DNA of 64,000 nucleotides from an uncultured delta proteobacterium (GTDB lineage: Bacteria; Myxococcota_A; Polyangia; Polyangiales; Houyiibacteriaceae). This document shows positions 42,773 to 64,000 of the stretch, piece by piece (positions within the stretch are counted from its first letter, which is position 1; every line of letters starts with the position of its first letter). A program made the position numbers and the translations under genes. The notes under the pieces were generated by a model. That model was not told the origin of the DNA and ran no database searches. It saw nothing but the letters and a program-made list of their open reading frames with translations. The stretch is from NCBI GenBank assembly GCA_963699755.1, contig CAVOVB010000002.1, forward strand, positions 838,956 through 902,955, written 5' to 3'.

Positions 42773-44782
42773 TTAATTGAAGAGCGTTCGTTCGCGGCGG
42801 TGGACTTGGATGATCGGGTTGCGGCCGAGGAGCCAGGTGGGGTCGTTGCCTGGGGGGAGGATTTGGAGGCGGCCGCCGTGCTCGCCTTCGAGGTGGCAAA
42901 AGGCGCAGGGGCTGGTGAGGTTGTCGGCGTCGTCGGTGCCGCCGTTGGCGCGGTACTGCACGTGGTGGAGGGTGACGTTGCGTTGGTGGCAGACGGGGTT
43001 GGTGCAGCGGTAGCGATCGCGGCGGTAGATCTGCTCCCATTTGTCCGAGGTGCCTAACTGGGGGACCCATGTTTGCCAGAAGGTCGTGCAGAGGAACTGG
43101 ATGAAGCTTTCGTCGGGGAAGTGCTTGCGGTGGAGGCGTTCGAGTTGGCGGTAGTGGAGGAGGAGATCGCCGGGGACGCGGATTCGCAACGTGATCTTGG
43201 CGGATGGACCTACGGATATCTGGACAGGTTCTTTCGCGGCCTCGTCTTCGGGGGTTACGGATATCTGGACAGTGGGATCGGGCGCGGGCGCGCGGGCCTC
43301 TTCTCTGCGGGCGGGTTCATGGGGTTCATGGCATCCGTCGCGGTCGGGTTCGGACAGCGGGTCGCGGATGACCCGGCGCAAGAGCTCGCCGCTGAGGATG
43401 GCGCGTTCGGCGGCTTCGACTTGTTGGAGCTGGGCTTCGCTTGGGGGTGAGCCGTCGGTCTCGCCCAAGAAGCGGGTGGCCATTTCTACGGCTTGAACTT
43501 CTTCGCGGAGGTGTTTGAAGGTGCGGCGGGTGGCGCGGGTGAGCCAGGCGCGTTCGGTTTCGGGGGTGGCGACGCGGGCGATGAGCTGGGCGGCTTCGAA
43601 GCCGATGCGGCCTTTTTGGAGGGCGTCGATGAGGTGGTCGAGGCGCTCGGTCCGGCGGGCGAGGCTGAGTTTGCTGCGGAGGGAGGCGCGCGAGATGCCG
43701 AGGCGTTCGCGCGCGTAGTGGGCTTCGCTGGCGAAGCCGAGGGCTTGCCAGCCGCGGAGGGCGAGGAAGCGTTGGGCGATGCGGCCGAAGAAGAGATCGC
43801 GACTGGCGAGCTCGGCGCTGTAGTGACGGATGCGGGTGTCGAGTGTTTCGATGCCCGTGGGGAGGTCACTCGGGTCGGGGGCCTCGCCTGGATCGGGATC
43901 GGTGGGGACCGCGGGGCGGCTTTGAAGCTCGGCTTCGGCTTGCAGGTGTTGGAGGCGTTGCATCTGCGCGCGCCACGCGGCGTGTTCGGCTTCGGCTTCT
44001 GTGGAGAAATTGTTTTCGGATGCCGGGATGAGCTCGAGCAGGGAGATGGTGGCTTCGGCGAGGAGGGATTCGAGGAAGTGGGCGCCGGTGGATTTGCCGT
44101 CCATGTGCTCGACCATCATGCGCGTGGCTTCGAGCGCCCAGGCTTCTTCGACGGGGAGCGTGAGGGAGAGCGTGCGCGTGAGGTCTTCGTCGTCATCAAG
44201 CTGCGGCTCCGGCGGTGAGGCTGGTGATTCTGTTGAGCGCGATGAGCCTGGTGAGCCCGGCGACTCTTGCGAGCTCAACGCGATGCGCATCGCCGCGACT
44301 GTCTTGTCGCGTGCAATCTGGAGGAGCGCGGCTTCGGTTTCGGGGGTGGCGTGGCGGGCGAGGAGCTCGGCCATGGACCAGCCGATGGCGCCGGCTTCGA
44401 GTGACTCTGTTAAACGAGGGAGCGATTGGAGGCGGCGTGCGAGGGTGCGGGTTTCGGCGGCCCAGCGACCGCCGCGATTGCAGCGCTCGAGTGCGTATGC
44501 GCCGAGGGTGGAGAAGCCGAGCTCGTGGATGCCTTCGCCGAGGCGGTGAAGCGCCTGGCCGATGCGCAGTCGGAGGCGGCCCGCGCCGCGGGCTAGGCGG
44601 TGGAGCTCGGCGTCGAGCTGGGTGAGATCGCCGAGCGTGCGAGGTGCTTGGGGCTGGGCGTGCTGGTTGTCTCGGGGTTGCTGGGGGCTTTGTTGAGGAG
44701 CTCTGGGGCGTGTGGACGGGGGCGAATGGCCGGGGATTGGGAGCAGGAGGGGCGTCGGGGAGTGCGAGGGGGAACTTCGCAT
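42773..44782 (-). CDS. Large HNH endonuclease (DUF222-like helical region + C-terminal HNH), copy 1
   Basis: RDRYRC..PVC..HHVQYRANGGTDD..NL...CAFCH...H. Confidence 0.9.
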   Translation of the reverse strand: MRSSPSHSPTPLLLPIPGHSPPSTRPRAPQQSPQQPRDNQHAQPQAPRTLGDLTQLDAELHRLARGAGRLRLRIGQALHRLGEGIHELGFSTLGAYALERCNRGGRWAAETRTLARRLQSLPRLTESLEAGAIGWSMAELLARHATPETEAALLQIARDKTVAAMRIALSSQESPGSPGSSRSTESPASPPEPQLDDDEDLTRTLSLTLPVEEAWALEATRMMVEHMDGKSTGAHFLESLLAEATISLLELIPASENNFSTEAEAEHAAWRAQMQRLQHLQAEAELQSRPAVPTDPDPGEAPDPSDLPTGIETLDTRIRHYSAELASRDLFFGRIAQRFLALRGWQALGFASEAHYARERLGISRASLRSKLSLARRTERLDHLIDALQKGRIGFEAAQLIARVATPETERAWLTRATRRTFKHLREEVQAVEMATRFLGETDGSPPSEAQLQQVEAAERAILSGELLRRVIRDPLSEPDRDGCHEPHEPARREEARAPAPDPTVQISVTPEDEAAKEPVQISVGPSAKITLRIRVPGDLLLHYRQLERLHRKHFPDESFIQFLCTTFWQTWVPQLGTSDKWEQIYRRDRYRCTNPVCHQRNVTLHHVQYRANGGTDDADNLTSPCAFCHLEGEHGGRLQILPPGNDPTWLLGRNPIIQVHRRERTLFN

Positions 44783-44808
44783 GATTACTGATATTTATAG
44801 CCTCGATA

Positions 44809-44824
44809 CTGAACGTTTGTAAAG
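44809..44824 (-). promoter_or_regulatory. LexA-box-like site overlapping a putative -35 of HNH copy 1
   Basis: CTTTAC-AAAC-GTTCAG; TTTACA-N18-TATAAA; the site is identical upstream of copy 2. Confidence 0.5.
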
Positions 44825-44915
44825 TGCTTTTTGGGGTTATCGGTCGATGTGGCCGGGCGTTGCGTGGGGTTGGTCGATTTGTGGGACGCGCGCGCGGCGG
44901 GGGGCGGCGACGAGG

Positions 44916-45683
44916 TCAGAACTTGCCGTTGTCGTTCTTCCACTCTGACTTCGGGGCGACTGGTTCGATTGTGTCCCAGTGCTCGACGACCTTTGCGTTT
45001 GCGAGGCTGAAGAGGTCGTAGAAGGCGGTGTGGACGCCGGCGAGGGTGCCTTCGCTGACGGTGAGGACGAATGAGCCCTCTGCGAGGATGCGGTGCAGGT
45101 GTTGGTAGTCGACGAGGGGGGCGCCGTCGTGCGCGGCTTCGAGCGCGGCCCTCCAGGCGGCGATGCCGTCGGTGAGATTGGGGTTGTGTTGGGCGAGCTC
45201 CGCATCGACGTAGCGGGGGAGCAGGTCTAGGCGACGGGGGATTAGGACGTCTTGCACGAGGTTGCGGACTAGGCGGCGGTTTTCGTCGGTGCGGTCGAGA
45301 TCCGTCGGGGTGGTTGGGCCGTCGACCATGCTGCGACCGGACGGGTTTGGGCCGCGACGGGGTTGGATGTTGTCCCAGTGTTCGACGGCCTGGTCCGCCT
45401 CGAAGCGAAACACCTCGAAACCGATTCGGCGTGTGGCAAAGTCGTACTCGGTGTGGGCGAAGACGAAGTCGCCGTCGGCGAAGGCACGAACGATGTTCAC
45501 GCGCGGGTTGGTCTTCGACAGGCGGGCGAAGAGCGCGGCCAGGCCTTCACTGCCTTCGTGCGTTTGCGGATTGTGCTGGATGTACTTCGACTCGTTGACG
45601 ACGGCCGCGGCAGCGGGGTCGCCTGTCTCGATGCCCTTTAGGAGCTTTCGGATTAGGTTCTTGCGTTGCTCGGGGGTGGTCAT
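44916..45683 (-). CDS. Tandem SnoaL/NTF2-like protein
   Basis: Two QHNP...EHWD repeats. Confidence 0.88.
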   Translation of the reverse strand: MTTPEQRKNLIRKLLKGIETGDPAAAAVVNESKYIQHNPQTHEGSEGLAALFARLSKTNPRVNIVRAFADGDFVFAHTEYDFATRRIGFEVFRFEADQAVEHWDNIQPRRGPNPSGRSMVDGPTTPTDLDRTDENRRLVRNLVQDVLIPRRLDLLPRYVDAELAQHNPNLTDGIAAWRAALEAAHDGAPLVDYQHLHRILAEGSFVLTVSEGTLAGVHTAFYDLFSLANAKVVEHWDTIEPVAPKSEWKNDNGKF

Positions 45684-45700
45684 GTGCGCCTGATAGGATT

Positions 45701-46093
45701 TCAGCGAGCCGCGCGCGGGCGTGCGGTATTGATTGCGGGGATGTCCCAGGCTTCTGCGAGGCGGCCGTCGACGATGCGCCAGACGACGACGGCGTCGATC
45801 TCGAGCGCGGTGCCTTCGAATGCCATGGTGTCGCGGACGTGGGCGACGACCAGCTCATCTCCGAAGGCTGTGACTGAGAGCGGTTCGACCGCGAAGGTGC
45901 CGCCCGTCCCGGCTCCTAGCTTGTCGAAGAAGGCTTGTAGGCCGGCGACACCGACGTAGTCGCCTTGGACATCCGGCAGGCGGGGGTTGAAGAAGTGCCA
46001 GACGAAGTCCTCCTCGAAGAGGTCCGCCCAGCTGGCGAGGTTGCCGAGGTCGACACGCTTCAGAAGGGAGACGTTTGGATGCTCTTCGGACAT
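45701..46093 (-). CDS. SnoaL/NTF2 family protein
   Basis: DLFEEDFVWH..VWRIVDGRLAEAWD. Confidence 0.85.
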   Translation of the reverse strand: MSEEHPNVSLLKRVDLGNLASWADLFEEDFVWHFFNPRLPDVQGDYVGVAGLQAFFDKLGAGTGGTFAVEPLSVTAFGDELVVAHVRDTMAFEGTALEIDAVVVWRIVDGRLAEAWDIPAINTARPRAAR

Positions 46094-46132
46094 GGCGGGC
46101 TCCTTGGGGTTGGGGCTAGCTAGGGGTTCCGC

Positions 46133-46504
46133 CTAGGTGAGCCTTGTTTGACTGGGAAACGAGATTTCGAGCACGAGGCAGCCTTCTTCGGTGCGGAAGG
46201 GGCCGTGGGGTTCGCCGGGTGGGCGGCTCGCGTAGTCGCCCTTCTCGAGCCAGCGATCGAAGGCGGCGTCGTAGAGGCTTCCTTCGACGATGAACACCTC
46301 TTCGGGGTAGTCGTGTGACTTGCTGCCAAAAGGGGTCGTGTCGGTGCCCGGGGCGAAGCGCGTGAGGCGGGTGTAGTCGCCGGACGCCTCGTCGATCGCG
46401 AGGGTGAGCTCTTCGGCCATGCCTTCGAGGCCTTCGATGGGTTGCCAGTCGCCGCGGTGCTCGTCCGAGAGCGGATTCCAATAGGTGCGTGTCGTCTTCG
46501 ACAT
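46133..46504 (-). CDS. Cupin-domain (ChrR-like) protein
   Basis: HDYPEEVFIVEG..RPPGEPHGPF. Confidence 0.85.
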   Translation of the reverse strand: MSKTTRTYWNPLSDEHRGDWQPIEGLEGMAEELTLAIDEASGDYTRLTRFAPGTDTTPFGSKSHDYPEEVFIVEGSLYDAAFDRWLEKGDYASRPPGEPHGPFRTEEGCLVLEISFPSQTRLT

Positions 46505-46640
46505 GGTGCGGAATGGTAGCTGAAGCCCTAGTCTTCATACACCTCGGACCTTCGGCGTGTCGAAGCCGTTCCAGCTCATGATGGTGGGCTCGGTTACGGT
46601 TTCTTGGCCCTACGCGTTCAATTGGTCCTTACGGACGTGC

Positions 46641-47048
46641 ATGAGGACAACTCCAACGCGAATTCTCCACTCCGCTCTGTTCTTGGGGCTGGTACTCGGT
46701 GGCTGCGGCAGTAGCTCAAACGGCGGCGGCGGCGGAACGGCTGGCTCGACCGGTGGCGCAGGCGGACAGGCCGGAAGCGCCGGAGCAGCTGGCGGTGGAG
46801 GGGTCGCCGGCGGGGGCGGCACGGCAGGCGGCGGAGGCAGCGGTTGCGCGACCAACGACGATTGCGACGCGGCGGACTACTGCGCCTCGGATGTCTCGTG
46901 CGACGAACCGGGAGAGTGCCTGGCACGACCGCTCACGTGCCCATTGGTGTTCGACCCGGTGTGCGGATGCAACGGCACGACGTACAGCAACTCATGCGAG
47001 GCTGCGGCCGCGGGTGTCAGGGTCGAGTTTGATGGGGCCTGTCCGTAG
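46641..47048 (+). CDS. Lipoprotein with Kazal-type domain
   Basis: LGGC lipobox; PVCGCNGTTYSNSCEA. Confidence 0.85.
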   Translation: MRTTPTRILHSALFLGLVLGGCGSSSNGGGGGTAGSTGGAGGQAGSAGAAGGGGVAGGGGTAGGGGSGCATNDDCDAADYCASDVSCDEPGECLARPLTCPLVFDPVCGCNGTTYSNSCEAAAAGVRVEFDGACP

Positions 47049-47068
47049 GGGTGGGCAGGCGCGGCCTG

Positions 47069-47917
47069 TTAGCTCGACCCGGTGCTCAGGAACTCGGAGA
47101 TGAGCTCGGCTACTCTCTGGGGTTCGTCTTCTTGAAGGAAGTGGCCGCAGTTGGGCAGCGCGGTGAGCTCGGCTTCGGGGTGGTCTTGTTGCAGACGGCG
47201 CATGGTTTGGGCGATGTCGGGGAGTGCGCGGTCGTTTTCGCCGTAGATGAGGCGGATGGTGCCTTGGTAGCCGGGGAGCGCGCGGGCGATTTGGGCGAGG
47301 CCGGCGGTGCCTAGGCCGGAGGCTGCTTTGAGGAGGGCTTTGCGCGCGGCGGGATCGGTGAAGGGGGCGGTGTACGGGGTGAGGACTTCGCGGTTGAGGC
47401 GGCCTTTGTTAACGACGCCGAGCTTCATCGCGGCGACGATGCCCTTGGGGCTCACGAGGTAATCGCGGAGGCCGGGCGTTTTCAGGGCGAGGAGGAAGAG
47501 CTTCACCGCCCAGGAAGTTTCCGGGTAGACCAAGGTGTTGAGCACGACGAGCTTTTGCACGCGGTGGGGGTGGCGAACCATCCAGTAGAGCCCGACGGGG
47601 CCGCCGAGGTCGTGCACGCAGAGGTGCGTGTCGCCGATGCCGAGCGCGTCGAGGAATGCGTCGAGCGTGTCGGCGTAGAAGTCGTAGTCGTACGCGGCGT
47701 CGAGGGGCTTATCGGAGAGGCCGTAGCCCGGCAGGTCGAGCGCGATGGCGCGATGGGTTTTGCCGAGCTCGGGGAGGATGTTGCGGTAGAGGTGGCTGCT
47801 GGTGGGGAAGCCGTGAAGGAGGAGGATGGGCGGGACGTTGGGATCGGGGGCGCCGGATTCTAGGTAGTGGAGGCGGAGGGACTTGGCTTGGGTGTAGTGG
47901 GAGATTGGGGCTGGCAT
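47069..47917 (-). CDS. Alpha/beta hydrolase (haloalkane dehalogenase-like), copy 1
   Basis: HGFPTSS; VHDLGG; GHFLQED. Confidence 0.9.
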   Translation of the reverse strand: MPAPISHYTQAKSLRLHYLESGAPDPNVPPILLLHGFPTSSHLYRNILPELGKTHRAIALDLPGYGLSDKPLDAAYDYDFYADTLDAFLDALGIGDTHLCVHDLGGPVGLYWMVRHPHRVQKLVVLNTLVYPETSWAVKLFLLALKTPGLRDYLVSPKGIVAAMKLGVVNKGRLNREVLTPYTAPFTDPAARKALLKAASGLGTAGLAQIARALPGYQGTIRLIYGENDRALPDIAQTMRRLQQDHPEAELTALPNCGHFLQEDEPQRVAELISEFLSTGSS

Positions 47918-47934
47918 TGGAAGGGAGAGGCTAC

Positions 47935-48140
47935 CACGTGGCGCGGGCAACAGGCCGCGCGGCCTTCGGGTTGGCCGCGGCCTTGCTCCGGCCTGCGCAG
48001 GGTGTGCACGCTGATCTCGAGGGCGCGCGCGAGCTCTTTTTTGGCTGAGGCCGACGTCGGCTTCGGTCCGCTCTCGAATCTCGAGATCGTCCGTCATCCA
48101 TGGACGAGGCCGGCTCTGTATTGCCGATGCACGCCGCGCT
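47935..48140 (-). pseudogene. Heavily deleted relic of the BrnT-like toxin / HTH antitoxin module
   Basis: MTDDLEIRE.TEAD joined to VGLSQK..ARALEISVHTLR; matches 61064-61420 with internal deletions. Confidence 0.75.
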
Positions 48141-48632
48141 TTACGGCAGCTTCCACTCGCCGTTCCAGTCGGACCAGCCCGCGCCGGTGTCGCCGATGAA
48201 GTTGCCTTGGAACTTCTGATTGCCTGTGATGCCTTCGTACTTGCCGGTCCCGCCTACGAAGCGTTCCGTGCCGGGGCATGCGGGCATCTTTCCGGAGCAC
48301 TGCCACTCGACGAAGATCGTGTCGCCATCGGCGTCGGTCACCACGCAAGTGCCTCTTGCATCGGCGTGTCCTTTGTTGACGTCGTTGTAGATCGAGCAGT
48401 CGACGCGGGACTTGTGCATGAAGCCCTTGCCCTTGTCGTTGAACATGACGCCGGGCACGATGCCGGCGTAGATCGTCCGGTCTTCTCCAAGCTTCTGGAT
48501 CTTCCCGGTGAAGGTCCAGCCGTAGTGACCGGAGTATTTCCCGCTCTTTGGTAGATCGCCCGCGTCGACGGACGAAGTGAAAGCGAGCGTGGCGAGTGCG
48601 AATAGCGATACGATGGAAATTGTGCGAGTCAT
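48141..48632 (-). CDS. Hypothetical secreted protein
   Basis: Signal peptide; GGTGKYEGITG motif; AGGAG RBS. Confidence 0.75.
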   Translation of the reverse strand: MTRTISIVSLFALATLAFTSSVDAGDLPKSGKYSGHYGWTFTGKIQKLGEDRTIYAGIVPGVMFNDKGKGFMHKSRVDCSIYNDVNKGHADARGTCVVTDADGDTIFVEWQCSGKMPACPGTERFVGGTGKYEGITGNQKFQGNFIGDTGAGWSDWNGEWKLP

Positions 48633-48897
48633 CGTTCTTGCTCCTTGTCCTAAACCAGTTTGATGGGCAGCGCCGGACGCGGCGTTTCGCGCTTGTGCGC
48701 GGAAGCCGCACGATCGCACCTTCGTGCTGGAATTCCTAGAGGCCCCCGTGAAGCGCCTTTAGGGAGGGGACACGGAGGGACCGCTCGCCGCTCGTTTGGG
48801 GCTTTGGCCAGGGCGTGCGTCCGTCTGTTCAGGTCTTTGCCTCACAGGAAGGGCGGTCTCGGTGACCGAGGGGGGGAAGAGGCCTTATCCTGATCGG

Positions 48898-49818
48898 ATG
48901 AGGATCTGGGGGGTCATTCTCGTGTTCGTCGGTGCGTGCGGGGACGGTTCGGGCAGCGACTGGACGTCGGCGCGAAGCGCGCCAAGCCTTTTCGCGGCGA
49001 TCGATGTGTGGGCGTTTGCGCCGACCGACGTGTGGGTCATCGACGGGAGCTCGAGCATCCAGCGCTTTGATGGCGACGGTTGGAGCGCGCTCGACACCGG
49101 GAGCAACGGCGGGCTTCAGTGCATCTTCGCGCTGTCGCCGACCGAGGTGTGGCTTTGCTCGGGCGGCGACCTCTTGTTCTACGATGGCGCGACGTTCGAG
49201 CCGATGAATGTGTCTCAGCCGACTGGGCTGAGCGGGCTGACCGACGTCTGGGCCTCTTCTCCGAACGACGTGTGGGCGGTGGGCGATGACGCCATCGTCG
49301 CCCACTACGACGGCAACGCGTGGGGGCGCACGATCGCCGGCTCACCGTTCAAGAGCTCGATCTGGGGCTCTGGGCCCAGCGATGTCTACACGCTTTCGAC
49401 GTTCGATCTCGTGCACTACGACGGATCGACTTGGACCGAAGTCGACCTCGACGCGGGCGCCGGCGACGGTCAAGTCTGGGGAACCAGCGCGAGCGACGTT
49501 TGGGTGATGTCGGACAGCTCCGAGCTCAGTCATTTCGACGGCGCGCAGTGGGAGACGATCGACACCTTCGACTTCGTCGGTGACTTGAGCGCGGTCTGGG
49601 GTCCTTCGCCGGACGACCTCTGGGCAGTGGGCAGCGCCGGCGCGATCGCGCACTACGACGGCAAGTCGTGGCGGCAAGTCGCGCATCAGAAGATCGGCGC
49701 GCCCTACCTACGCCTCTTCCTCGCCGTGCACGGAACGTCTTCGACCGACGTCTGGGCGGTTGGGCAACAGCTCGGCGAGGGCGGCTCGACGGGGCTGATT
49801 TTCCACTATCGGCCCTGA
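48898..49818 (+). CDS. Beta-propeller repeat lipoprotein
   Basis: Repeated VWG.S..DVWAVG..HYDG..W. Confidence 0.8.
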   Translation: MRIWGVILVFVGACGDGSGSDWTSARSAPSLFAAIDVWAFAPTDVWVIDGSSSIQRFDGDGWSALDTGSNGGLQCIFALSPTEVWLCSGGDLLFYDGATFEPMNVSQPTGLSGLTDVWASSPNDVWAVGDDAIVAHYDGNAWGRTIAGSPFKSSIWGSGPSDVYTLSTFDLVHYDGSTWTEVDLDAGAGDGQVWGTSASDVWVMSDSSELSHFDGAQWETIDTFDFVGDLSAVWGPSPDDLWAVGSAGAIAHYDGKSWRQVAHQKIGAPYLRLFLAVHGTSSTDVWAVGQQLGEGGSTGLIFHYRP

Positions 49819-49860
49819 GCGAGGCGGGACGTTGGCTTCGGTTGGATTGAAGGCGCGGTG

Positions 49861-50703
49861 TTAGTCCGACCTGGTGTTCAGGAACTCAGCGATCAGTTGC
49901 CCTACTCTTTTTGGTTCGTCTTCTTGAAGGAAGTGGCCGCAGTTGGGCAGCGCGGTGAGCCGGGCTTCGGGGTGGTCTTGTTGGAGGCGGCGCATGGTTT
50001 GGGCGATGTCGGGGAGCGCGCGGTCGTTTTCGCCGTAGATGAGGCGGACGGACGCTCCGTAGCCGGGGAGCGCGCGGGCGATTTGGGAGAGGCCGCCGAT
50101 GCCTAGGCTGGAGGCTGCTTTGAGGAGGGCTTTGCGCGCGGCGGGATCGGTGAAGGGGGCGGTGTACGGGGTGAGGACTTCGCGGTTGAGGCGGCCTTTG
50201 TTAACGACGCCGAGCTTCATCGCGGCGACGATGCCCTTGGGGCTCACGAGGTAATCGCGGAGGCCGGGCGTTTTCAGGGCGAGGAGGAAGAGCTTCACCG
50301 CCCAGGAAGTTTCCGGGTAGACCAAGGTGTTGAGCAGGACGAGCTTTTGCACGCGGTGGGGGTGGCGAACCATCCAGTAGAGCCCGACGGGGCCGCCGAG
50401 GTCGTGCACGCAGAGGTGCGTGTCGCCGATGCCGAGCGCGTCGAGGAATGCGTCGAGCGTGTCGGCGTAGAAGTCGTAGTCGTAGGTGACGTCGAGGGGC
50501 TTGTCAGAGAGGCCGTAGCCCGGCAGGTCGAGCGCGATGGCGCGATGGGTTTTGCCGAGCTCGGGGAGGATGTTGCGGTAGAGGTGGCTGCTGGTTGGGA
50601 AGCCGTGCAGGAGGAGGATGGGCGGGACGCGGGGATCGGGGGCGCCAGATTCTAGGTGGTGGAGGCGGAGGGACTTGGCTTGGGTGTAGCGGGAGGTTGG
50701 CAT
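49861..50703 (-). CDS. Alpha/beta hydrolase (haloalkane dehalogenase-like), copy 2
   Basis: Near-identical to 47069-47917. Confidence 0.9.
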   Translation of the reverse strand: MPTSRYTQAKSLRLHHLESGAPDPRVPPILLLHGFPTSSHLYRNILPELGKTHRAIALDLPGYGLSDKPLDVTYDYDFYADTLDAFLDALGIGDTHLCVHDLGGPVGLYWMVRHPHRVQKLVLLNTLVYPETSWAVKLFLLALKTPGLRDYLVSPKGIVAAMKLGVVNKGRLNREVLTPYTAPFTDPAARKALLKAASSLGIGGLSQIARALPGYGASVRLIYGENDRALPDIAQTMRRLQQDHPEARLTALPNCGHFLQEDEPKRVGQLIAEFLNTRSD

Positions 50704-50794
50704 TGGGGGGGGTGAGGGTACCATGGGGAGGCGCGTCGACTTTGTCCCTTGCTGCAGTCCGTGTGCGGTCAGTCGGTTGCGCTAGCGGCGCGAG

Positions 50795-53973: not shown

Positions 53974-53999
53974 GATTACTGATGTTTATAGCGTAGATA

Positions 54000-54015
54000 C
54001 TGAACGTTTGTAAAG
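54000..54015 (-). promoter_or_regulatory. LexA-box-like site / promoter of HNH copy 2
   Basis: Same 16-mer as 44809-44824. Confidence 0.5.
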
Positions 54016-56023: not shown

Positions 56024-56438
56024 CTATGGTTTCTTGAACCCGAAGTCCGGCTTCTCTCCGCGGATGAGCATGTCCAGGAACTTCTCGATGCGTCTCTGTC
56101 TGGTTTCGGGTCGCTTGGCCGTGGTGAGTGCGTAGGCGATGGCGAATCGATTGGTCTTGTTCAAGGTTTCAAAGCATTGTTTCGCTCTGGGCTCGCGTTC
56201 GACCGCTGCCAGGAAATCCGCGGGCAGTTTCATTTCGCTTGCCGCGTAGGCATTCTTCCAGCGTCCGTCCGCCTTCGCGGCGCGGACCTGCACCAGCCCC
56301 GGCTCCTGCATGCGACCCTCGCCGATCAAACGCTCCGCATGCTCTCGGTTCCGCTTGGACCAAGTGCTCCGAGGTTTTTGCGGACGCAAAGGTCTTGGCT
56401 TTCGCTCGGTCGGGTTCGGGGATGGGATCAGAAAGCAA
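56024..56438 (-). pseudogene. YdeI/OmpD-associated family gene with internal deletion
   Basis: PEPD...KTFAS N-terminus joined out of frame to STWSKRN..AKADGRW..AKRPETR. Confidence 0.75.
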
Positions 56439-56447
56439 TGACGCGAC

Positions 56448-56867
56448 TCAGCGTGCGTTCGTGAATGGATTGAAGCACTCGATGTCGAGGGCTTCGACCT
56501 GGCGGACGTTGCGGGTGGCGAGGATGAGGCCGTGGACATGGGCGGTGGCAGCGAGGAGGCCATCGACCGTGGGGATGGGATTGGGCGCGCCCAGTTTGCC
56601 CCAGGTGCGTGCGATGGGGAGCGTCACGGGAAGGATCCGGTCTTCGAACTGAGTGCAGAGCCCGGAGAGCCAGCGGCGGAGGCGCGCGGCGGATTTTGGA
56701 TCGCGCTTGCGGATGCGCTCGATGCCGCGTTCGATTTCACCGACGACCAGCACGCTGAGGTAGGCGTCGGCTTCGTCGAGCGCGCCGAACCAGTCCCGGA
56801 CGGCGGAGTTGCAGCGGCTGCCCTTGCGAAGCTCGGAGACGACGTTGGTGTCAAGGAGATAGGCCAT
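56448..56867 (-). CDS. VapC/FitB PIN-domain toxin
   Basis: YLLDTNVVSE; DGLLAATA; TRN..NPF. Confidence 0.93.
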   Translation of the reverse strand: MAYLLDTNVVSELRKGSRCNSAVRDWFGALDEADAYLSVLVVGEIERGIERIRKRDPKSAARLRRWLSGLCTQFEDRILPVTLPIARTWGKLGAPNPIPTVDGLLAATAHVHGLILATRNVRQVEALDIECFNPFTNAR

Positions 56868-57087
56868 CGTCACGGTCGACGTCGCGCTCGATCGCGAAGT
56901 CGGCGTCGGCGCCGACATCGGGCATCGAGAGCAGCGCTTCTTTGAACGAGCGGCTCGGGCGGCCGAGCAGCACCTCGCGCAGGATCGCCCGATGCTCGGC
57001 CTCGGCCGACACCCCGTTCTTGGCCGCGCGCACCTTCAACGCGCGGACGACGGACTCTTCGAGCTCTCGGACGATGAGTTGGGCCAT
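56851..57087 (-). CDS. FitA-like RHH antitoxin
   Basis: MAQLIVR.L..ALKVRAA..G.S.EAE.R.IL. Confidence 0.9.
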   Translation of the reverse strand: MAQLIVRELEESVVRALKVRAAKNGVSAEAEHRAILREVLLGRPSRSFKEALLSMPDVGADADFAIERDVDRDDGLSP

Positions 57088-57112: not shown

Positions 57113-57192
57113 TTTGGAGTCCGGTTGTCAATGCTCACGACTGGCTATCGGACGGTGGTGGCGGAAGTTGCGCGATTGCGCGCGTCCGTGGC

Positions 57193-57780
57193 TCAGTGAG
57201 CGCCGTGCATCATCGAGGGGTCGTGGGCCTGGCCGGTTCGTGCCGTCCATGTTTCGGCGTCGACGACTTCCTGTCGGTAGGTGGAATAACAGCGCGTGCA
57301 GGCTTGCAGGGTGTCCGACGTGGCTCTCAAGACCGCTTGCGCATCGCGCGCGTCGGCGGCCTCACCGATCGCGTCGGCCTTGCGATGGAAATCGAGCGCC
57401 ATCTCCGTGAAGCCATCGGCGCCAGCGCCCATGTGCTCACACATCTGCTGCATCTGGGGAGATGACCCGATGCGGGCAGAGGCAACGCCGATCGCTTCCC
57501 AATCCTCGCGGGCGAGGCCGTCGCCGATGCGCTCAATCGCCACGAGGTGATCCTGCATGTTCTGCTTCTGGTGCCAGGCCATCATGGGCTGCAACGGCAC
57601 CGGGCGCCGAGGGTCGAGCGCATTGAGCTCGGAGACGGGCTGGCAGGCGTCGCTCGAAGCCGCCGGCACCCGAGCTTGATCGACTGGTTGTGCTGGCGTC
57701 GGTTTGCCTTCGCACGCTGTCATGAGAAGCGCGGCAAGCGCCGCCAACGTGTATCGCATGATGGGATTGTTCGAGCTCAT
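57193..57780 (-). CDS. Cytochrome c'-like lipoprotein with CxxCY in place of CxxCH
   Basis: MTAC lipobox; helical body; ACTRCYSTYRQ. Confidence 0.7.
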   Translation of the reverse strand: MSSNNPIMRYTLAALAALLMTACEGKPTPAQPVDQARVPAASSDACQPVSELNALDPRRPVPLQPMMAWHQKQNMQDHLVAIERIGDGLAREDWEAIGVASARIGSSPQMQQMCEHMGAGADGFTEMALDFHRKADAIGEAADARDAQAVLRATSDTLQACTRCYSTYRQEVVDAETWTARTGQAHDPSMMHGAH

Positions 57781-57820
57781 TGGGAAGGGGCCGTGGCATG
57801 GGGTGAGGGTAGCTCGCGCT

Positions 57821-58084
57821 CTACTCTTCGTACACCTCGCGGCGCTGGCCGATCTTTACGATCACCACGACATCGGGCGGCTCGATACGGTAGACCACGC
57901 GGTAGTCGCCGACACGGAGGCGGCGGGCGCCTCGGAGGCTGTAGCGGAGGGGCTTGCCGAGCTCGAAGGGGTGGGCGGCGAGCTTCTTTTCGATGGCGCG
58001 GCGTATTTGGTGTTTAGCCGACTTGGGGAGGGCGGGGATGTCGTCGGTGACGACGCTTCGCAGGTACTCGATGCGATAGGTCAA
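57821..58084 (-). CDS. RelE/StbE family toxin
   Basis: GKPL..L.G.RRLRVGDYRVVY; TTG start overlaps the antitoxin stop. Confidence 0.9.
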   Translation of the reverse strand: MTYRIEYLRSVVTDDIPALPKSAKHQIRRAIEKKLAAHPFELGKPLRYSLRGARRLRVGDYRVVYRIEPPDVVVIVKIGQRREVYEE

Positions 58085-58302
58085 TCCCACGCCTCATCGT
58101 GGGAGACCCGGCGCTGCTTCTTCTTCAGGCGCGCATCGGCCACCTTGGAGAAGTAGCGGTCTTCCTGGTACTCGAGAGCCTCTTCGATGAGGCGGAGGCT
58201 GGTCCGTGAAATCGACTCCTCGCACTCGTCTGCCAAGCGCTCGATGGCCGCGTACGTCGCGTCGTCGATCGTGATGTTGATTCGTTTCTTCTGGGTGGGC
58301 AT
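58081..58302 (-). CDS. Antitoxin of the RelE toxin
   Basis: RINIT RHH-like N-terminus; coupled to relE. Confidence 0.85.
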   Translation of the reverse strand: MPTQKKRINITIDDATYAAIERLADECEESISRTSLRLIEEALEYQEDRYFSKVADARLKKKQRRVSHDEAWD

Positions 58303-58526
58303 TTGCATAGTGTAACACTTTTGCATCACTTGGAGCGCGCCGCACGGGCGCGCGCCGAAGGCGCGCGTTCCTTCCGCTAGCTCGGATCACCGCGCCATCG
58401 ACACCGGACTCCCGGATATCTGGACAGAGGCATCGGGTTCGGGCGCGCTGGCCTTTTCTTTGCCGGCGCGTCTATCGTGTTCACTGGGTGCGGGTCGTCA
58501 GTGGGTCCTGTGTCGATTGAAGCGTC

Positions 58527-58826
58527 TCACGTCGCGAGCTTGGGAAGAGGCTTGGGGAGCTTCGAGATGCGCTTTGCGGCTTCGTAGAGGTCGACGGCGC
58601 GTTGCGCGGCGAGCCAGAACTCGGCGGTGGTGTCGAATGCGGCGGCGAGCTTCAGGGCCATCTCGGCGGTGACGGCGGTGCGGCCGTTGACGATGCGGTT
58701 GATGACCTTGATGTCGCAGCCGAGGTGATCGGCGAGAGCCTTCTGGGTCAGGCCGAGCGGCTCGAGGTATTCCTCATGGAGGATTTCGCCAGGTGTGGTG
58801 GGCTTGCGGTTGATTTTTCGTATCAC
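58527..58826 (-). CDS. higA: HigA family antitoxin
   Basis: TPGEILHEEYLEPLGLTQ..MALKLA..FW...Q. Confidence 0.92.
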   Translation of the reverse strand: MIRKINRKPTTPGEILHEEYLEPLGLTQKALADHLGCDIKVINRIVNGRTAVTAEMALKLAAAFDTTAEFWLAAQRAVDLYEAAKRISKLPKPLPKLAT

Positions 58827-58840
58827 GGTGCCGAGCTCCT

Positions 58841-59128
58841 TCAGTGGTAGTCGACGATGTCGACATCGGCTGGGCCGTTGGGTGTCCAGCGGAAGATGAT
58901 GCGCCACTGGTCGTTGATGCGGATGGCGTGAAGACCGCGCATGCGCCCCTTCAGCGCCTTGAGGCGGTTGCCCGGTGCGTTGAGGTCCCGAAGCGAGCCG
59001 GCGTAGTGCAGGATGTCTAGCTTTCGAATCACGACTCTTTGGAGCAAGGCCCATCCAACGGGCCTGGTGAGGGTTTGGTTTGCGAAGAATTCTTTGACCA
59101 CGCGGCTCTTGAAACTCTGAATCGCCAC
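58841..59128 (-). CDS. higB: HigB family toxin
   Basis: PGNRL.ALKG..IRINDQWRIIFRW..DIVDYH. Confidence 0.92.
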   Translation of the reverse strand: MAIQSFKSRVVKEFFANQTLTRPVGWALLQRVVIRKLDILHYAGSLRDLNAPGNRLKALKGRMRGLHAIRINDQWRIIFRWTPNGPADVDIVDYH

Positions 59129-59153: not shown

Positions 59154-59394
59154 CCTTGCTTAGGCATGGATCAAGCAGAAAGCCATGTGGCCCCGCCGCG
59201 GTACCGGGCTGCAGTTTGGGTTTCGTCATCGATGGGTTATCGGCCAGCGGCGTCGGGAGTTGCGCGTGTGCGGGCGCCACGGGCGCGCGCTGGAGGCGCG
59301 CGTTCCTTCGGCTAGCTTGAATCACGGCGCGATCGACGCTGGACCCACGGATATCTGGACCGAGTGGCTACGTTGGTTCCGGTAAGCGGAGGGC

Positions 59395-59622
59395 TCAGCG
59401 CTTGGCGAGGTCAGCCAGGACGTCGGCGGCGAGGCGCCCTTCCCCGGCTTGGAACGAGGCCCATGCTTGCCCGATGGCGGCGTGGAGCGCGGCGCGCTCG
59501 GCCTCGTCGAGACTGTCACCCGCGTCGTCGATGACGAGATCGAGCTCGGTGCCTTCGGGAAGGTCCGTCGGCGCGTCCACGATGAGACGGCCGTTCCGAA
59601 CTCGGGCGCGAATCGTCGACAT
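59395..59622 (-). CDS. Putative antitoxin; toxin partner absent
   Basis: ARVRNGRL..PTDLPEGTEL; C-terminal G.G..A.DVLA.L tail; scaffold follows. Confidence 0.65.
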   Translation of the reverse strand: MSTIRARVRNGRLIVDAPTDLPEGTELDLVIDDAGDSLDEAERAALHAAIGQAWASFQAGEGRLAADVLADLAKR

Positions 59623-59699
59623 CATGGTGAGAGTAGCACGCGACCTTGGGTGGGCCTAGCGCGTGTGGGACCCACGGATATCTGGACAGAGGTGGGCTT

Positions 59700-60044
59700 C
59701 TACTTCTTCCTACGGCGTGTGCGTGGCGCTTTGGTCGTCGGCTTCTTCGGTGACGCGGCGTTGAGCTCGAGGCGAAGACCGAGGGCGGCGACGTACTTCT
59801 CTAGCGTGGAGACGCGGACGTCGTGGCCGGACTCGAGGCGGCTCACGATGGCTGCGGAGGTTTGCATGAGGGCGGCGACTTGGGTTTGGGTTTTGCCACT
59901 CGAGCGCCGGCGTTCGGCCATTTGGCGGCCAAACGCCAACCGCGCTTCCACGTCGGCCACCATGGCAGCGAACCCTGGCTCGCGCGCGTCGCGCTCGGCG
60001 ATGTAACGTTCGAGGTCGTCTCTTGGTTTCGATTGGCGTGCCAT
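59700..60044 (-). CDS. XRE-HTH antitoxin
   Basis: TQTQVAALMQTSAAIVSRLESG..TLEKYVAALG. Confidence 0.88.
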   Translation of the reverse strand: MARQSKPRDDLERYIAERDAREPGFAAMVADVEARLAFGRQMAERRRSSGKTQTQVAALMQTSAAIVSRLESGHDVRVSTLEKYVAALGLRLELNAASPKKPTTKAPRTRRRKK

Positions 60045-60090
60045 TGTTTTTATCACATTTAGTATGCCTTTTGTGAGATGGCAATCCGGG

Positions 60091-60250
60091 TCAGCGCTTC
60101 GCTGCCCTGCCCCTGCTTCGCCAGTCCGCGAGGCGGCGCTCGGCGAGCTCGATGATGCGAGCTGGGGTCCTTTGGGTCTTCTTCGTGAAAGCTTCGAGGG
60201 CCAGCAGGACCTGCTGGGCCCTTCCCTCGGGGCTGAACAGCACCCGAAAC
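60091..60250 (-). pseudogene. 5'-truncated Gp49-like RelE toxin
   Basis: RVLF..LLALEAFTKKTQRTP..IELAERR; the upstream half is replaced by scaffold. Confidence 0.8.
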
Positions 60251-60617
60251 GGTTTCGCAGAACCGCCATCGTCTCCGGTGCATGGTTGCTTATCGGCCAG
60301 CGGCGCCGGAAGTTGCGCGTGTGCGCGCGCCCGCGGCGCGCGCCGAAGGCGCGCGTTCGGACTCCCGGATATCTGGACAGCGTTGCCTTCGTCTCCGGGA
60401 CTCACGGATATCTGGACAACAGCATCGCGCTCGGGCGCGCCGGCCTCTTTTTTGCCGGCGCGTCCATCGGGTTTATTGCGCTCGCCGACTCCCGGATATC
60501 TGGACTGGGGTGGCTTCGGTTGCAGTTAGGTTGTCAAGGAACGATCGGACCCGCTTGGCACCCGAAGCGGTTTCGTAGAACCGCCAGCGCCTGCGGTGCA
60601 TGGTTGGTTATCGGGCG

Positions 60618-60683
60618 CCGCCAGACGTAGCCAGCTGCTGCAGCGATGTCATCGAACGCGCGAGGCGTGATGACGATTCGCAC
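60618..60683 (-). pseudogene. ParE-like toxin N-terminal stub
   Basis: GTG overlapping the upstream stop; MRIVITPRAFDDIAAAAGY, then scaffold. Confidence 0.6.
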
Positions 60684-60895
60684 TACTCGAGGCTTGCTTT
60701 GAGCTTGGCGAATGCTTCGTCGCGTGAGAGGCCCTCCCCCGCACGCACCGACGCCATCGCGGCCTCGAAGCCGGCCTCTTGCTCTTCGGTGAGCTCAGGG
60801 GGCTCGTCGATGGGGACGAGCACGTAGCGGCCCTTCTCGAGGGCTTTGAGCTCTTCGGGAACGTCGACGCCGTTCCAGTTCACGATGACGGCCAT
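60683..60895 (-). CDS. Putative antitoxin
   Basis: 70 aa; LTEEQEAG..A.ASVRAGEG; coupled to the ParE-like stub. Confidence 0.65.
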   Translation of the reverse strand: MAVIVNWNGVDVPEELKALEKGRYVLVPIDEPPELTEEQEAGFEAAMASVRAGEGLSRDEAFAKLKASLE

Positions 60896-61063
60896 GGGCA
60901 AAGCATACCTTCCCTCTTGCTTGGGTTCGAGGAGTGGGTTGGGCATGCTTGGTTATCGGACGCCGGCGGCGGAAGTTGCGTGATTGCGCGCCCGTGGTGC
61001 GTGCTAGAGGCGCGCGTTCGTTCGGACTCCGGGATATCTGGACTGGGGGGTTCTGGTGAACGG

Positions 61064-61387
61064 TTATCGGCTCTTCGCCTTGGCTGGGGATGGGCCGCGG
61101 CCTGCTGCACCGCGAATGATGTTGGGGTGACGGGCTGCGATTTTGAGAAGCGCGATGGCGGGGCCTTCGGGTTGGCGGCGGCCTTGCTCCCAGTTGCGCA
61201 GGGTGTGCACGCTGATCTCGAGGGCGCGCGCGAACTCTTTTTGGCTGAGGCCGACGAAGCGCCGGAGCAGAACGATGTCTCTACCAGACTCGATCCGTCC
61301 CTCGCGGATGCGTCGCCTGACCGGCGCGGGAATCATCCGCCGGAAATCGGCTTCTGTCAGCTCGCGAATGTCGAGGTCGTCAGTCAT
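61064..61387 (-). CDS. XRE-HTH antitoxin (paralogue of 54131-54457)
   Basis: Highly similar protein. Confidence 0.9.
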   Translation of the reverse strand: MTDDLDIRELTEADFRRMIPAPVRRRIREGRIESGRDIVLLRRFVGLSQKEFARALEISVHTLRNWEQGRRQPEGPAIALLKIAARHPNIIRGAAGRGPSPAKAKSR

Positions 61388-61512
61388 CAGTAGAAGAAAC
61401 CCGCTTTGTATTGGCGATAGCGTTCGCGCGGTTTCGCGTCTTCGAACCGTACGCCGTGCTTTCGTTGGTTGGCATCGTTCTTCGCGTGATCCCACCCGAA
61501 GCGGATCGACAT
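61387..61512 (-). pseudogene. BrnT-family toxin with central deletion (41 aa)
   Basis: MSIRFGWDHAKNDANQRKHGVRFEDAKP fused to the 3' end. Confidence 0.8.
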
Positions 61513-61814
61513 TGGAAGTGTCGCCTTTCAAGAGGGGTAAGTCAATGGCTTACCCTCGGGCTTGGGGCCGGACTTGCCGGCGGGACTCCCGGATATCTGG
61601 ACAGCTTCGTCCCGCGCCTCGTGTTCGGGGTCACGGATATCTGGACAGGAGGGGCTCCTACATCGGCGGCTTCAGTGGTAGTTAGGTTGTCAAGGAACGA
61701 TTCGACCGGCTTGGCCCACGAAACGATTTTGTAGAACCCGCATCGTCTGCGGTGCATGTTTGGTTGTCGGACGGTGGCGGTGAGAGTTGTGTGCTTTCGT
61801 TCGAACTCGAAGCC

Positions 61815-62375
61815 GTGTTGGTTCTTCATTGCACACAGAAGCTATTGCGGGCGGCGGGGGAGCGCGGAACGGGGCAAGTCCCCGACGCAGATCCACTCGA
61901 CTCGTGGCATGCGAACCTCTTTCACTGGGAGCGGCGCAAGTGCGTCATCGTCGTGAACGATCGCACGCTCTTTCCGGTCCTCCTTTTCGGGGTGAAGAAG
62001 CCACAGCTCTCGGACCTTCCTCGTACATTCACGGAGCGGTTTTGCTCATTGCTGCACGAGCGAAAGGTGCCGGCTTACGTCGTTGACCACGTGCGTCAGC
62101 TCTACAGCGAAGCCCATCTCGCCACCACGAGCGACCGAAGCGTCACGGGCTCGCTCAACCAGCTCGTCTACGAGCTGAAATGGGTGGTGGCCAACCACCG
62201 AGTCGCCAGTCCGACCTTGGGGACCCGAGAGGTCGACGAGTTCCTTTGGGCTTGGGCCTCCCTTCAGATCCCGGAGTTCCGCGTCGCCGAGGCTTTGACC
62301 GATCGATTCCTCGCTCGGTTCGTCGAGTCCGGCCGTCCAGATCTTGCGCAAGCTAGGGAGATGCTCCCCCGCTAG
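61815..62375 (+). CDS. DUF6933-like hypothetical protein
   Basis: LHCTQKLL..SWHANLF..RRKC..VND.TL..T.DRSV.GSLN. Confidence 0.7.
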   Translation: MLVLHCTQKLLRAAGERGTGQVPDADPLDSWHANLFHWERRKCVIVVNDRTLFPVLLFGVKKPQLSDLPRTFTERFCSLLHERKVPAYVVDHVRQLYSEAHLATTSDRSVTGSLNQLVYELKWVVANHRVASPTLGTREVDEFLWAWASLQIPEFRVAEALTDRFLARFVESGRPDLAQAREMLPR

Positions 62376-62486: not shown

Positions 62487-62810
62487 TTACGCCGAGGCGG
62501 CGGCGCCGATTGCCCTGCCCACTTGCTTTCGGTTTACGCCGAGGGCGAGGAGGGTGCGGATGAGGAGGTCGACGGAGACGCTTGGGTCGCCGGCTTCCAT
62601 TTTGGCGACGCGGGATTGGCTGGAGCCGATGAGGTCGGCGACTTGGGTTTGGGTGTAGCCGAGGCTCTCTCGGCGCTTCCTGAGTAGCGCGGCCAGGGAG
62701 AGCTGGAGCTCGATGTACTCGGCTTCCTCGTCGGTGAGGCCGAGGAAGTCCTTGGCGGAGCCGAATCTCCACCCCTGGGCCTCGAGCCGACGTCGTTTTG
62801 ATTCCTTCAT
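62487..62810 (-). CDS. XRE-HTH antitoxin
   Basis: GW..GSAKDFLGL..TQ..A..GSSQSRVAKMEAGDPSVS. Confidence 0.9.
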   Translation of the reverse strand: MKESKRRRLEAQGWRFGSAKDFLGLTDEEAEYIELQLSLAALLRKRRESLGYTQTQVADLIGSSQSRVAKMEAGDPSVSVDLLIRTLLALGVNRKQVGRAIGAAASA

Positions 62811-63157
62811 CGGAAGCCTCCCTCGGGGCCCTCGTCGTAGCGCCGTAGGCGGCGCGAGGCACGCCGGATCGCCGTGGTCGGCGTGCCGCGAGTCTTCTTC
62901 GAGAACGCATCCACGACGACAATCGCATCGGCATCGAGGCGGTAGATGATCCGCCACGTTTGGCCTCGTTCGTGATCCGGAATGCGCAGCTCATGGCAGC
63001 GCGGGCCGATCGAGGGCATGGGTCGTGATTCAGGCATGGAAAGTGTTTCGCCTCTTTGCAGTCTCCTCAGAAGCAATCCAGCTCGCTTTCGCGCCTCGGC
63101 CGAGAAGGCAGGACTCCGCACCGTCTCGCCGAGCCAAACGAGCGGCTTATCCGGCAT
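62807..63157 (-). CDS. Gp49-like RelE/ParE toxin
   Basis: SRPMPSIGPRCHELRI..WRIIYR..FSKKT. Confidence 0.9.
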   Translation of the reverse strand: MPDKPLVWLGETVRSPAFSAEARKRAGLLLRRLQRGETLSMPESRPMPSIGPRCHELRIPDHERGQTWRIIYRLDADAIVVVDAFSKKTRGTPTTAIRRASRRLRRYDEGPEGGFR

Positions 63158-63173
63158 GAAGCCAGGTTTCTTC

Positions 63174-63191
63174 TATGTCATATTCGACATA
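63174..63191. promoter_or_regulatory. Putative TA operator
   Basis: Inverted repeat TATGTC-N6-GACATA. Confidence 0.55.
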
Positions 63192-63709
63192 GACTTGCAA
63201 CCGAAATGTCATGATTCTTCGTCATGGGAGTTCTCGGTCGCTTGCGCGCGAAGTTGCGCGATTGCGTGCGCCCGCGGCGCGCGCCGAAGGCGCGCGTTCC
63301 TTCCGTCCGCTAGCTTGGCTCACGGTGCGGTCGACGCCGGACTCCCGGATATCTGGACAACGTTGCCTTCGTCGTTGGGACTCACGGATATCTGGACAGC
63401 GGGGACGTTGTCTTCGGGGGTCACGGATATCTGGACAGTCGTATTGGGCTCGGGCGCGCCGGCCCCTCCGTTGCCGGCGCGTCCCTCGCGCTCATTGCGT
63501 GCAGTTTCGGCTTCTCGACTCCCGGATATCTGGACTGGCGTGGCTGCGTCGCTTTCGGTGGGTCGGACGCGAGGTTGGGGTTCGGTTGTCAAGGAACGCT
63601 TGGACTGGGTTGGCGCCCGGACCGAGCTCGTAGAACCGCCATCGGCTGCGGCGCATGGTTGGTTATCGGACGATGGCAGCTGGAGTTGCGTGCTTTCGTT
63701 GACTTCGCG

Positions 63710-64000
63710 GGGATCGAGGCCGAGGCGTTTGTCCTGCGCGTGCGTGGGGAGGCGATGTTCCGCGTACACGTGGGTGAAGACGAGTTTTTCGAGCTCGGGC
63801 TGCGCGACGGCACCTTGGTGGTGGACCGAACCGAGGGTCGTGAAATCAGCGAAGGTTTTTCTGGGCGCTTCACCCGCGATGCGCCGAACGCCGAAGGCTT
63901 CGTGGCCGTCGTCGATCGCTTCAGCATCGAGCTCTTCGGGGACTGCGAGGTGATCACGGCAAGCGCGTTCCAAGGCAGCGACAGCCGCGGAATCGAGCTC
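63710..64000 (+). pseudogene. GH32 C-terminal-domain-like fragment, 5' truncated, runs off the window
   Basis: Plus-frame LVVDRT..F..VVDRFSIELFG..VITASAF..RGIEL. Confidence 0.5.

Follow-up and report, generated by a model that had tools for sequence, protein, structure and literature searches.

The window analysed here comprises the last 64 kb (64,000 nucleotides) of contig C2 of an uncultured Polyangiales genome (the source genome, G000; 5.35 Mb), and its terminal part holds an array of gene cassettes that resembles an integron array in the way it works and yet does not pass the tests for one, namely IntI and a simple attC pattern. The reading we favor, at a probability of roughly 0.45, is that host recombination fed by DNA uptake acts at two kinds of repeat, Q and S, and that the cargo is expressed in the uptake state. 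The array would be a hypervariable island whose cassettes are toxin–antitoxin (TA) modules, the HNH endonuclease gene and some enzyme genes, each made up of a Q promoter, its own σ70 promoter or operator, the genes and, optionally, repeat DNA of the S, T, R and Q2 types. Q would be a copy of the host alternative-sigma promoter that drives dprA, comF and the tad/flp pili, so that the cargo would probably be switched on during DNA uptake, while S and T would be pieces of the HNH linker, spread by duplication and deletion of a mobile HNH gene. RecA/DprA recombination between shared repeats, which would supply the homology otherwise missing between genomes that are about 80% identical, would lead to the gain, loss and reordering of cassettes, with DNA drawn largely from congeneric species. 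The HNH gene would seed S and may raise local recombination by nicking, without being needed for each event, and chromosomal curing by transformation would favor TA modules primed at that moment (compare the part of PMC12378983 that deals with curing). An integron-like array could then exist without need of an integrase. No published description of the array or of the Q promoter was found in a literature search whose coverage left out subscription papers and supplements.

The order of the cassettes varies between genomes, as had been anticipated in an initial annotation of this DNA: in five congeners, the hand-coded adjacencies shared with G000 range from 1/20 to 6/11, and the same units occur in other orders in G011, G023 and G060–G063 and on short contigs of G022, G042 and G058. 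The joints fall at the repeats. Across 93 Q sites, the identity between sites with the same cargo rises from about 0.3 to 0.9 just after Q (step at Q+29); 27 pairs of sites have 90 nt or more of upstream sequence in common, and 16 of them part within 15 nt past Q; 155 of 215 pairs sharing the cargo leader lose upstream similarity within 20 nt; and there are cases in which one long upstream stretch continues, right at Q, into different cargo. At S, similarity ends no more than 10 nt beyond the cluster in 12 of the 27 pairs (from 70 S clusters) that have their upstream DNA in common. Additional joints, at S, T and Q, are visible in public contigs. The cargo also crosses species boundaries, being 93–96% identical to that of G011 and G015, whose topA and dprA are 81–82% and 73–76% identical, respectively; the best cargo matches in G060–G063 are 95–99% identical, a comparison that carries no core-gene control. 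Near-identical DNA is present in sediment, salt-marsh and soil metagenomes, and because the arrays recur in several assemblies and in public contigs, an assembly artefact as their origin was ruled out. The proposal of an integron-like gene-capture platform thus stands as regards an integrase-free array of variable order, with joints at repeat blocks and ties to an HNH family, and falls as regards a single dedicated tandem scaffold.

Read in the direction of the genes, Q has the sequence CGCAAC-N16-CGATAA, and none of the 43 aligned sites departs from this spacing. The window holds 11 full sites, which score 23–50 bits; at 12 bits, about 0.2 sites would be expected in 64 kb. In the order as a whole, with G000 among the genomes, the motif followed by an in-frame start 4–9 nt downstream precedes dprA at 15 of 24 loci and comF at 19 of 27, and orphan Q sites lie 6–7 nt before the starts of the flp/tad pilin operon (10 of 40 loci, and G000), dprA, comF, an FHA-σ54 activator gene, a RAYT-like gene and TA pairs. 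With a matrix derived from 40 core-gene sites of other genomes, array sites make up eight of the top 11 matches in G000, and all 11 array Q sites are among its 62 matches, compared with 16 matches in the reversed control. In five genomes of other families, picked because the motif matched, the exact motif occurs 17–28 times (control, 0–1), and in the 30 loci read Q stands before dprA, comF, flp, three Rpn genes, and HicA and ParE modules. The starts after Q are mostly leaderless.

From its sequence, Q is probably the promoter motif of a host alternative sigma factor of the FliA/WhiG family. The −10 consensus of σ28 is GCCGATAA and its −35 is TAAA; the −10 of Q matches this −10, the spacing is fixed and the start lies 6–7 nt downstream. 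An extracytoplasmic function (ECF) sigma factor is the alternative for the recognition of Q, and CGCAAC resembles ECF-type −35 boxes. The order-wide sites before dprA, comF, flp/tad and the FHA-σ54 activator gene define a candidate competence or predation regulon of the Polyangiales. A conserved and apparently undescribed promoter of dprA, comF and tad pili across the order makes the control of competence or predation directly testable, and that unrelated selfish genes (TA pairs, HNH, Rpn and RAYT-like genes) share it suggests that addiction modules or nucleases are expressed when DNA is taken up, which would cast the conflict between transformation and mobile elements in a new light. FliA is reported to control the tad operon in Bdellovibrio (the relevant part of PMC5430801), and the competence-sigma regulons with ComX/cin boxes likewise place one alternative-sigma promoter before dprA, comF and pilin genes; here, in contrast, the −35 is CGCAAC, most starts are leaderless and selfish genes carry the promoter. 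Such a promoter was not found for Myxococcota in the literature search.

Several candidate identities of Q were rejected. Third codon positions are conserved and second positions variable, the opposite of coding sequence; no stable fold is predicted (z 0.1–0.9); for a dif site or XerC arm, no XerD arm and no dif were found, and the region is away from the terminus because dnaA lies at C1:985686; and Q was discarded as an end of the HNH element, being absent from many HNH copies and placed anywhere between 4 and 25 nt from the HNH −35. Other Q sites were seen in passing. The order-wide form CGCAAC-N16-CGATAN is found in G000 at C5:31625, C10:217074, C1:892596, C10:53846 and C3:692730 (L175–L179), and comEC and radC have, by eye, σ54-like boxes instead. 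Three Rpn/YhgA (Transposase_31) genes of G081 (L235, L240 and L245) each start about 10 nt after Q, and Q is the apparent leaderless promoter of a RAYT-like Y1 transposase gene at a fixed core locus (L121, L125, L130, L147 and L149) with no obvious repetitive extragenic palindromic (REP) flanks. At L088:12177–12268 and at L145, a terminator-like palindrome lies between two divergent Q sites, each of which points to a TA operon. A second Q-bearing TA island (L174; G000:C1:29000–35000), with RelE-HI1420-like, DUF4160-DUF2442 and other pairs, lies beside defence genes.

A number of observations weigh against host recombination at uptake-linked repeats. Ten of the 27 pairs alike upstream of Q stay alike past it and 11 of the 27 S-cluster pairs stay alike after S, the pairs in both sets not being independent, and the core-gene identity controls come from G011 and G015 only, not from G060–G063. 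A 28-bp Q with a variable spacer is short for RecA recombination. Its −35, CGCAAC, is unlike the TAAA of FliA, the FliA/WhiG-like sigma gene of G000 is short (198 aa) and below the family cut-off, and counts of genes with motif plus start in G000, six at spacer 16 and five at spacer 18, show no enrichment. The pattern used did not find Q at comEC, comEA, radC or recA of G000, because of which the regulon may reflect a predation or pilus state and not competence. Finally, the strong strand bias described below is not explained by host recombination.

The initial annotation correctly located the repeat blocks P, Q, R, S and T, which it had taken as parts of one dedicated scaffold. These blocks have separate origins: P is toxin gene, Q the host promoter motif, and S and T are HNH coding DNA. 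P, which begins six bases after Q, encodes the N-terminal part of a Gp49/RelE toxin, of which G062 has a complete copy; the array carries four stubs or deletions of this toxin. Nor is there a tandem unit of 318 or 430 bp, Tandem Repeats Finder detecting only the 39- and 45-bp periods of S. The scaffold does not begin upstream of HNH copy 2 either, as Q is already found upstream of copy 1 (44837) and a degenerate Q lies next to the 3′ end of each HNH gene. The genome contains 18 exact copies of S, all between window positions 43214 and 63535 (reversed control, 0), and, as had been noted, S and T lie inside both HNH open reading frames (ORFs): four exact S copies are within them and 14 outside, and T, too, is linker DNA. 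S codes for VQIS in the flexible HNH linker, before the second strand of the ribbon–helix–helix (RHH) pair. Intergenic S-T-S-S-S aligns with the linker and with no other part of the gene, and deletion derivatives are seen in which the HNH promoter is joined straight to S. Folding z-scores are −2.1 to −2.4 for T, −2.5/−1.0 for an S cluster and about 0 for Q2.

HNH proteins of two families, 40% identical to each other, have an S-like motif of 12 bp in the DNA of their linkers. G028 contains 41 copies of this 12-mer (control, 0). Most of them form an inverted pair within the linker, whose predicted hairpin has a z-score of −5.5, and the 12-mer is found outside ORFs as well, upstream of a DUF4258-MqsA TA pair that neighbours an HNH copy. 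For the HNH family, large and uncharacterised, the array provides a named candidate site, S, as well as a mutation signature. Separately, in G003 (L073:9560–10380) three S copies lie between an RHH antitoxin and a PIN toxin gene, on a strand with very high G+T at four-fold sites.

Two paralogous C-terminal-HNH genes of about 660 codons had been announced. Two paralogues are indeed present, matching PF01844 and 79.6% identical in nucleotide sequence, and a whole-genome search found only these copies in G000; copy 2, however, is not a gene of that length, its ATG lying in a different frame from the rest of the gene. Over 53679–54091, which includes the frameshift stretch of copy 2, the identical sequence is found in a short-read contig from run X1, a run that may be of the source sample. 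The HNH motif is uninterrupted in both copies, and the catalytic and zinc residues of the domain are conserved. The features of the two genes are, with HTH for helix–turn–helix:

42773..44782, − strand: HNH gene copy 1 (HNH1), intact, 669 aa, with two predicted helical/ParB-like HTH repeats, a predicted intramolecular RHH pseudo-dimer and a C-terminal zinc HNH domain
43214..43332, − strand: linker of HNH1, containing a T block and S twice, as VQIS codons
44809..44824, − strand: SOS-box-like site of HNH1, overlapping the −35 of its σ70-type promoter
51992..53973, − strand: HNH gene copy 2 (HNH2), with a frameshift close to the 5′ end, an intact HNH motif, and T plus three copies of S in the linker (52433–52590)
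54000..54015, − strand: SOS-box-like site upstream of HNH2

The structure model of the HNH protein (predicted local distance difference test, 86) suggests two helical repeats, with weak predicted similarity to ParB/Noc, an intramolecular RHH pair and a zinc HNH domain. Foldseek gave no match to this model at E ≤ 0.001, and a VIA structure comparison gave weak matches, the best with Z of 6.2 (Spo0J) and 5.1 (single-chain Arc). The promoter box resembles that of G000 recA and the M. xanthus SOS box (as given in part of PMC9705874), and the HNH protein is predicted to be SOS-inducible. PF01844 is the only family matched; the match to NF040563 (IscB) reaches 32 bits against a cut-off of 175 and covers the HNH part alone. 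The family comprises 4189 clusters at E ≤ 0.001, and the close relatives belong to the Polyangiales or Myxococcales SG8_38. The HNH gene of G028 is mobile and dispersed: its copies, 87–93% identical, end sharply at the stop on one side and about 100 nt ahead of the start on the other. Many HNH fragments were seen as well. The best reading is that HNH is a selfish resident gene. Loci L099–L115 of G028 hold about 20 dispersed copies in two subfamilies of opposite strand bias, one of which has a 14-bp inverted repeat in the linker and remnants of the repeat nearby.

The expected co-occurrence of scaffold and HNH genes was borne out for S and for clustered Q arrays, and not for Q as such. Over 55 genomes of the genus, HNH is present in 29, in 25 of which S accompanies it; the exact Q pattern, in contrast, is found in 44, many of them without HNH, and also in other families. 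In the 15 assemblies of at most 30 contigs, which are related and few, clustered Q arrays were seen in 7 of the 11 with HNH and in none of the 4 without.

The HNH genes are further marked by a strand bias at synonymous sites. G+T at four-fold sites is 0.16 in HNH1 and 0.15 in HNH2, compared with a mean of 0.46 (sd 0.05), and among 3609 G000 genes HNH2 and HNH1 rank second and third in C/A strand bias, the most biased gene lying in the second TA island (L174). In G000 the bias is local and runs against the replichore; bias windows reach 17–29 points in 9 of 14 related regions, and the bias is absent at one G046 copy and reversed in two of seven G028 copies. This points to repeated exposure or resynthesis of one strand. 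We also noted that synonymous-site bias in window 42000–64000 and in G000:C1:1–120000 is far beyond the genome background, with a change of sign near C1:70 kb; because the first 70 kb of C1 share the skew of the C2 end, the two contig ends may adjoin.

The bias is among the evidence for a different and, in our judgement, unlikely explanation, in which the HNH protein is the dedicated driver of the array: its HTH and RHH parts would bind S (or a single-stranded S hairpin), its HNH domain would nick one strand, and repair or strand displacement would copy, delete and insert cassettes, with timing by SOS and Q. Such a driver corresponds to the HNH cleavage put forward in the initial annotation, except that S takes the place of the whole scaffold as the site. 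The S-like motif common to the two families, its inverted pairs and its occurrence before a TA pair in G028, the dispersed and sharply bounded G028 copies, and the conserved catalytic and zinc residues would all fit such a driver. However, S lies inside the gene of the nuclease itself, where a homing target would not be; G014, G036 and one G028 subfamily have HNH copies that lack S or arrays, and G047, like G014, has HNH without an array; in the fragmented genome G042 an array is present and no HNH was found; the bias is absent or reversed at some copies; and half of the switches occur at Q, a host motif. Still less likely, we think, is a combined scheme of competence-coupled gene capture without an integrase, in which an HNH nickase with a pseudo-dimeric DNA-binding body, induced by both SOS and competence, would act on a hairpin site in its own linker, splice in incoming single-stranded cassettes that bear the host uptake promoter, and leave a strand-biased scar.

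That no recombinase is visible was confirmed. None was found in the window or among the ORFs of arrays and flanks, of which a selection was scanned (150 of 152 chosen, these being singletons and the representatives of clusters, with a length of 90 aa or more). TIGR02249, the integron integrase, is above cut-off in none of five array genomes; the nearest tyrosine recombinase (PF00589) on C2 is more than 520 kb away, in a sequence that ends at the G000 contig end; and a simple attC pattern (RYYYAAC...GTTRRRY) has one match in 42–64 kb, inside HNH1. Rfam and tRNA scans gave no matches. A recombinase encoded elsewhere, be it a large serine integrase, a RAYT-like Y1 protein or Xer, could act in trans at Q or S, as in phiRv1, stacks of the staphylococcal cassette chromosome (SCC) type or clusters of attC sites lacking integron integrases (CALINs). 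The sharp identity step at Q+29 would suit this explanation, as would the presence in each of the five array genomes of at least one serine recombinase (PF07508) and the use of Q as promoter by the RAYT-like gene in five loci. We nevertheless hold it improbable: Q is explained as a promoter, with a variable spacer, no fixed core, no inverted arms and no fold, and a search for the pattern XerC arm, 6 bp, XerD arm found no XerD-like arm there; the serine recombinases are always on other contigs, none being near any array; and no Y1 gene was found adjacent to an array, the search finding none in G061 and distant ones in the other genomes, where RAYT-like genes lie elsewhere without S, T or Q2 flanks.

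The array under host recombination is closest in appearance to sedentary chromosomal integrons and CALINs, such as that of V. cholerae, with which, as far as part of PMC12614218 describes them, it shares co-oriented, TA-rich small cassettes of variable order, an SOS-boxed catalytic gene at one end and, probably, feeding by natural transformation, by which true integrons are also fed (same source). In contrast to integrons, it has neither IntI nor attC, each cassette has its own promoter, and the joints consist of host promoter and nuclease-coding DNA. The REP13E12/DUF222-HNH genes have in common with the present genes a long helical N-terminus, a C-terminal zinc HNH domain, multicopy dispersal and a LexA-type box; they differ, together with the phiRv1 attB, in that here PF02720 (DUF222) has no match in the HNH proteins, the HNH motif does not serve as a docking site for cassettes, the neighbourhood contains no serine integrase and the phylum is another. 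One look-alike cluster in the Atlas has PF02720 in 13% of its members. The literature search found no publications on these genes or on the phiRv1 attB. Unlike phiRv1 and SCC-type stacks, the array has no linked large serine recombinase, and its HNH motif is not split by an attachment site. As for IscB/OMEGA/HEARO systems, no RuvC match, no full IscB match and, by Rfam, no linked structured RNA were found. P1 Ref, a RecA-dependent HNH nuclease (according to part of PMC4713147), and free-standing homing nucleases share the possible stimulation of recombination under SOS by an HNH nuclease; here, however, the body would be a pseudo-dimeric ParB-like HTH/RHH protein, the gene is chromosomal and the putative nuclease is known from sequence. 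Chromosomal TA clusters of Photorhabdus resemble the array in clustering, high turnover and toxin pseudogenisation but, in the portion of PMC13617665 concerned, are tied to transposases and integrases, whereas here repeats and an HNH gene are found.

The cargo agrees with what had been proposed for its orientation and content. From 54 to 64 kb, the cargo comprises 23 genes or stubs, 21 of which are oriented like HNH, and from 54 kb on there are nine TA pairs, five of them intact-looking and four with broken toxins, an orphan antitoxin, three further toxin stubs, and YdeI, DUF6933 and GH32 pieces. The array is cut on its right side because the window stops at the contig end, and neither S nor HNH was found elsewhere in G000 as a continuation. 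Its remaining features are:

42700..42727, − strand: degenerate Q downstream of HNH1, only the −35 box good
44837..44864, − strand: Q promoter motif before HNH1
44916..51817, no strand given: non-TA cargo between the HNH copies (two SnoaL, cupin, Kazal, two alpha/beta hydrolases, antitoxin stub, beta-propeller, GDSL esterase)
51963..51990, − strand: degenerate Q, two bases past the HNH2 stop codon
54028..54055, − strand: Q before HNH2
54131..54750, − strand: BrnT-like toxin (premature stop) and HTH antitoxin
54827..54960, − strand: Q (54827–54854), preceded by Q2 hairpin and T
55007..55793, − strand: TacA-like antitoxin and GNAT toxin, intact
55893..55975, − strand: Q (55893–55920), one S before it
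56024..57087, − strand: FitA-PIN pair (intact) and YdeI/OmdA stub
57145..57172, − strand: Q before FitA-PIN
57193..58308, − strand: RHH-ParE pair (intact) and cytochrome-c′-like lipoprotein gene
58335..58482, − strand: T-S-R-Q2 segment, Q missing
58527..59128, − strand: HigB-HigA pair, intact
59237..59365, − strand: S-R-Q2-Q segment (Q 59237–59264)
59395..59690, − strand: orphan AF2212-like antitoxin, leader joined directly to S
59700..60283, − strand: internally deleted Gp49/RelE toxin, whose 5′ end forms block P, with HTH antitoxin
60290..60635, − strand: half Q (60608), toxin stub P (60522–60601) fused to S-T-S-S-Q2, then Q (60290–60317)
60615..60946, − strand: small antitoxin-like gene and truncated ParE
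60953..61050, − strand: S-Q2-Q segment (Q 60953–60980)
61064..61510, − strand: second BrnT (deleted) and HTH antitoxin
61573..61791, − strand: Q (61764–61791), toxin stub P, S-S
61800..62375, + strand: DUF6933 gene, on the opposite strand
62487..63157, − strand: Gp49 toxin and HTH antitoxin, intact, the toxin 99% identical to a G063 copy
63231..63690, − strand: longest segment, with Q (63663–63690), toxin stub P, S-T-S-S-S, R, Q2 and Q (63231–63258)
63700..64000, + strand: 3′ part of GH32 gene, cut by the contig end

The four broken TA pairs and three stubs, which recall the erosion of chromosomal TA modules (in part of PMC13617665), and the many HNH fragments would befit a passive graveyard, in which selfish modules land in a permissive island, duplication and deletion erode all but promoters and gene ends, the tight joints reflect selection and there is no link to DNA uptake, an explanation we find as improbable as a recombinase in trans, given near-identical cargo with different neighbours in distant species, long upstream stretches that recur with different cargo attached right at Q, and a Q promoter before nearly every cargo as well as before TA and Rpn genes in other families.

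The genes of the block at 44916..51817 recur in congeners in other orders. Within it, two alpha/beta hydrolase copies, at 47069–47917 and 49861–50703, are 95% identical, and a BrnA-like antitoxin stub is fused at 47940–48100. To the left of the array, at window 9446–10390 (G000:C2:848443–849343), lies a probable Xre/RES-type TA pair with small mobile-looking genes, without Q.

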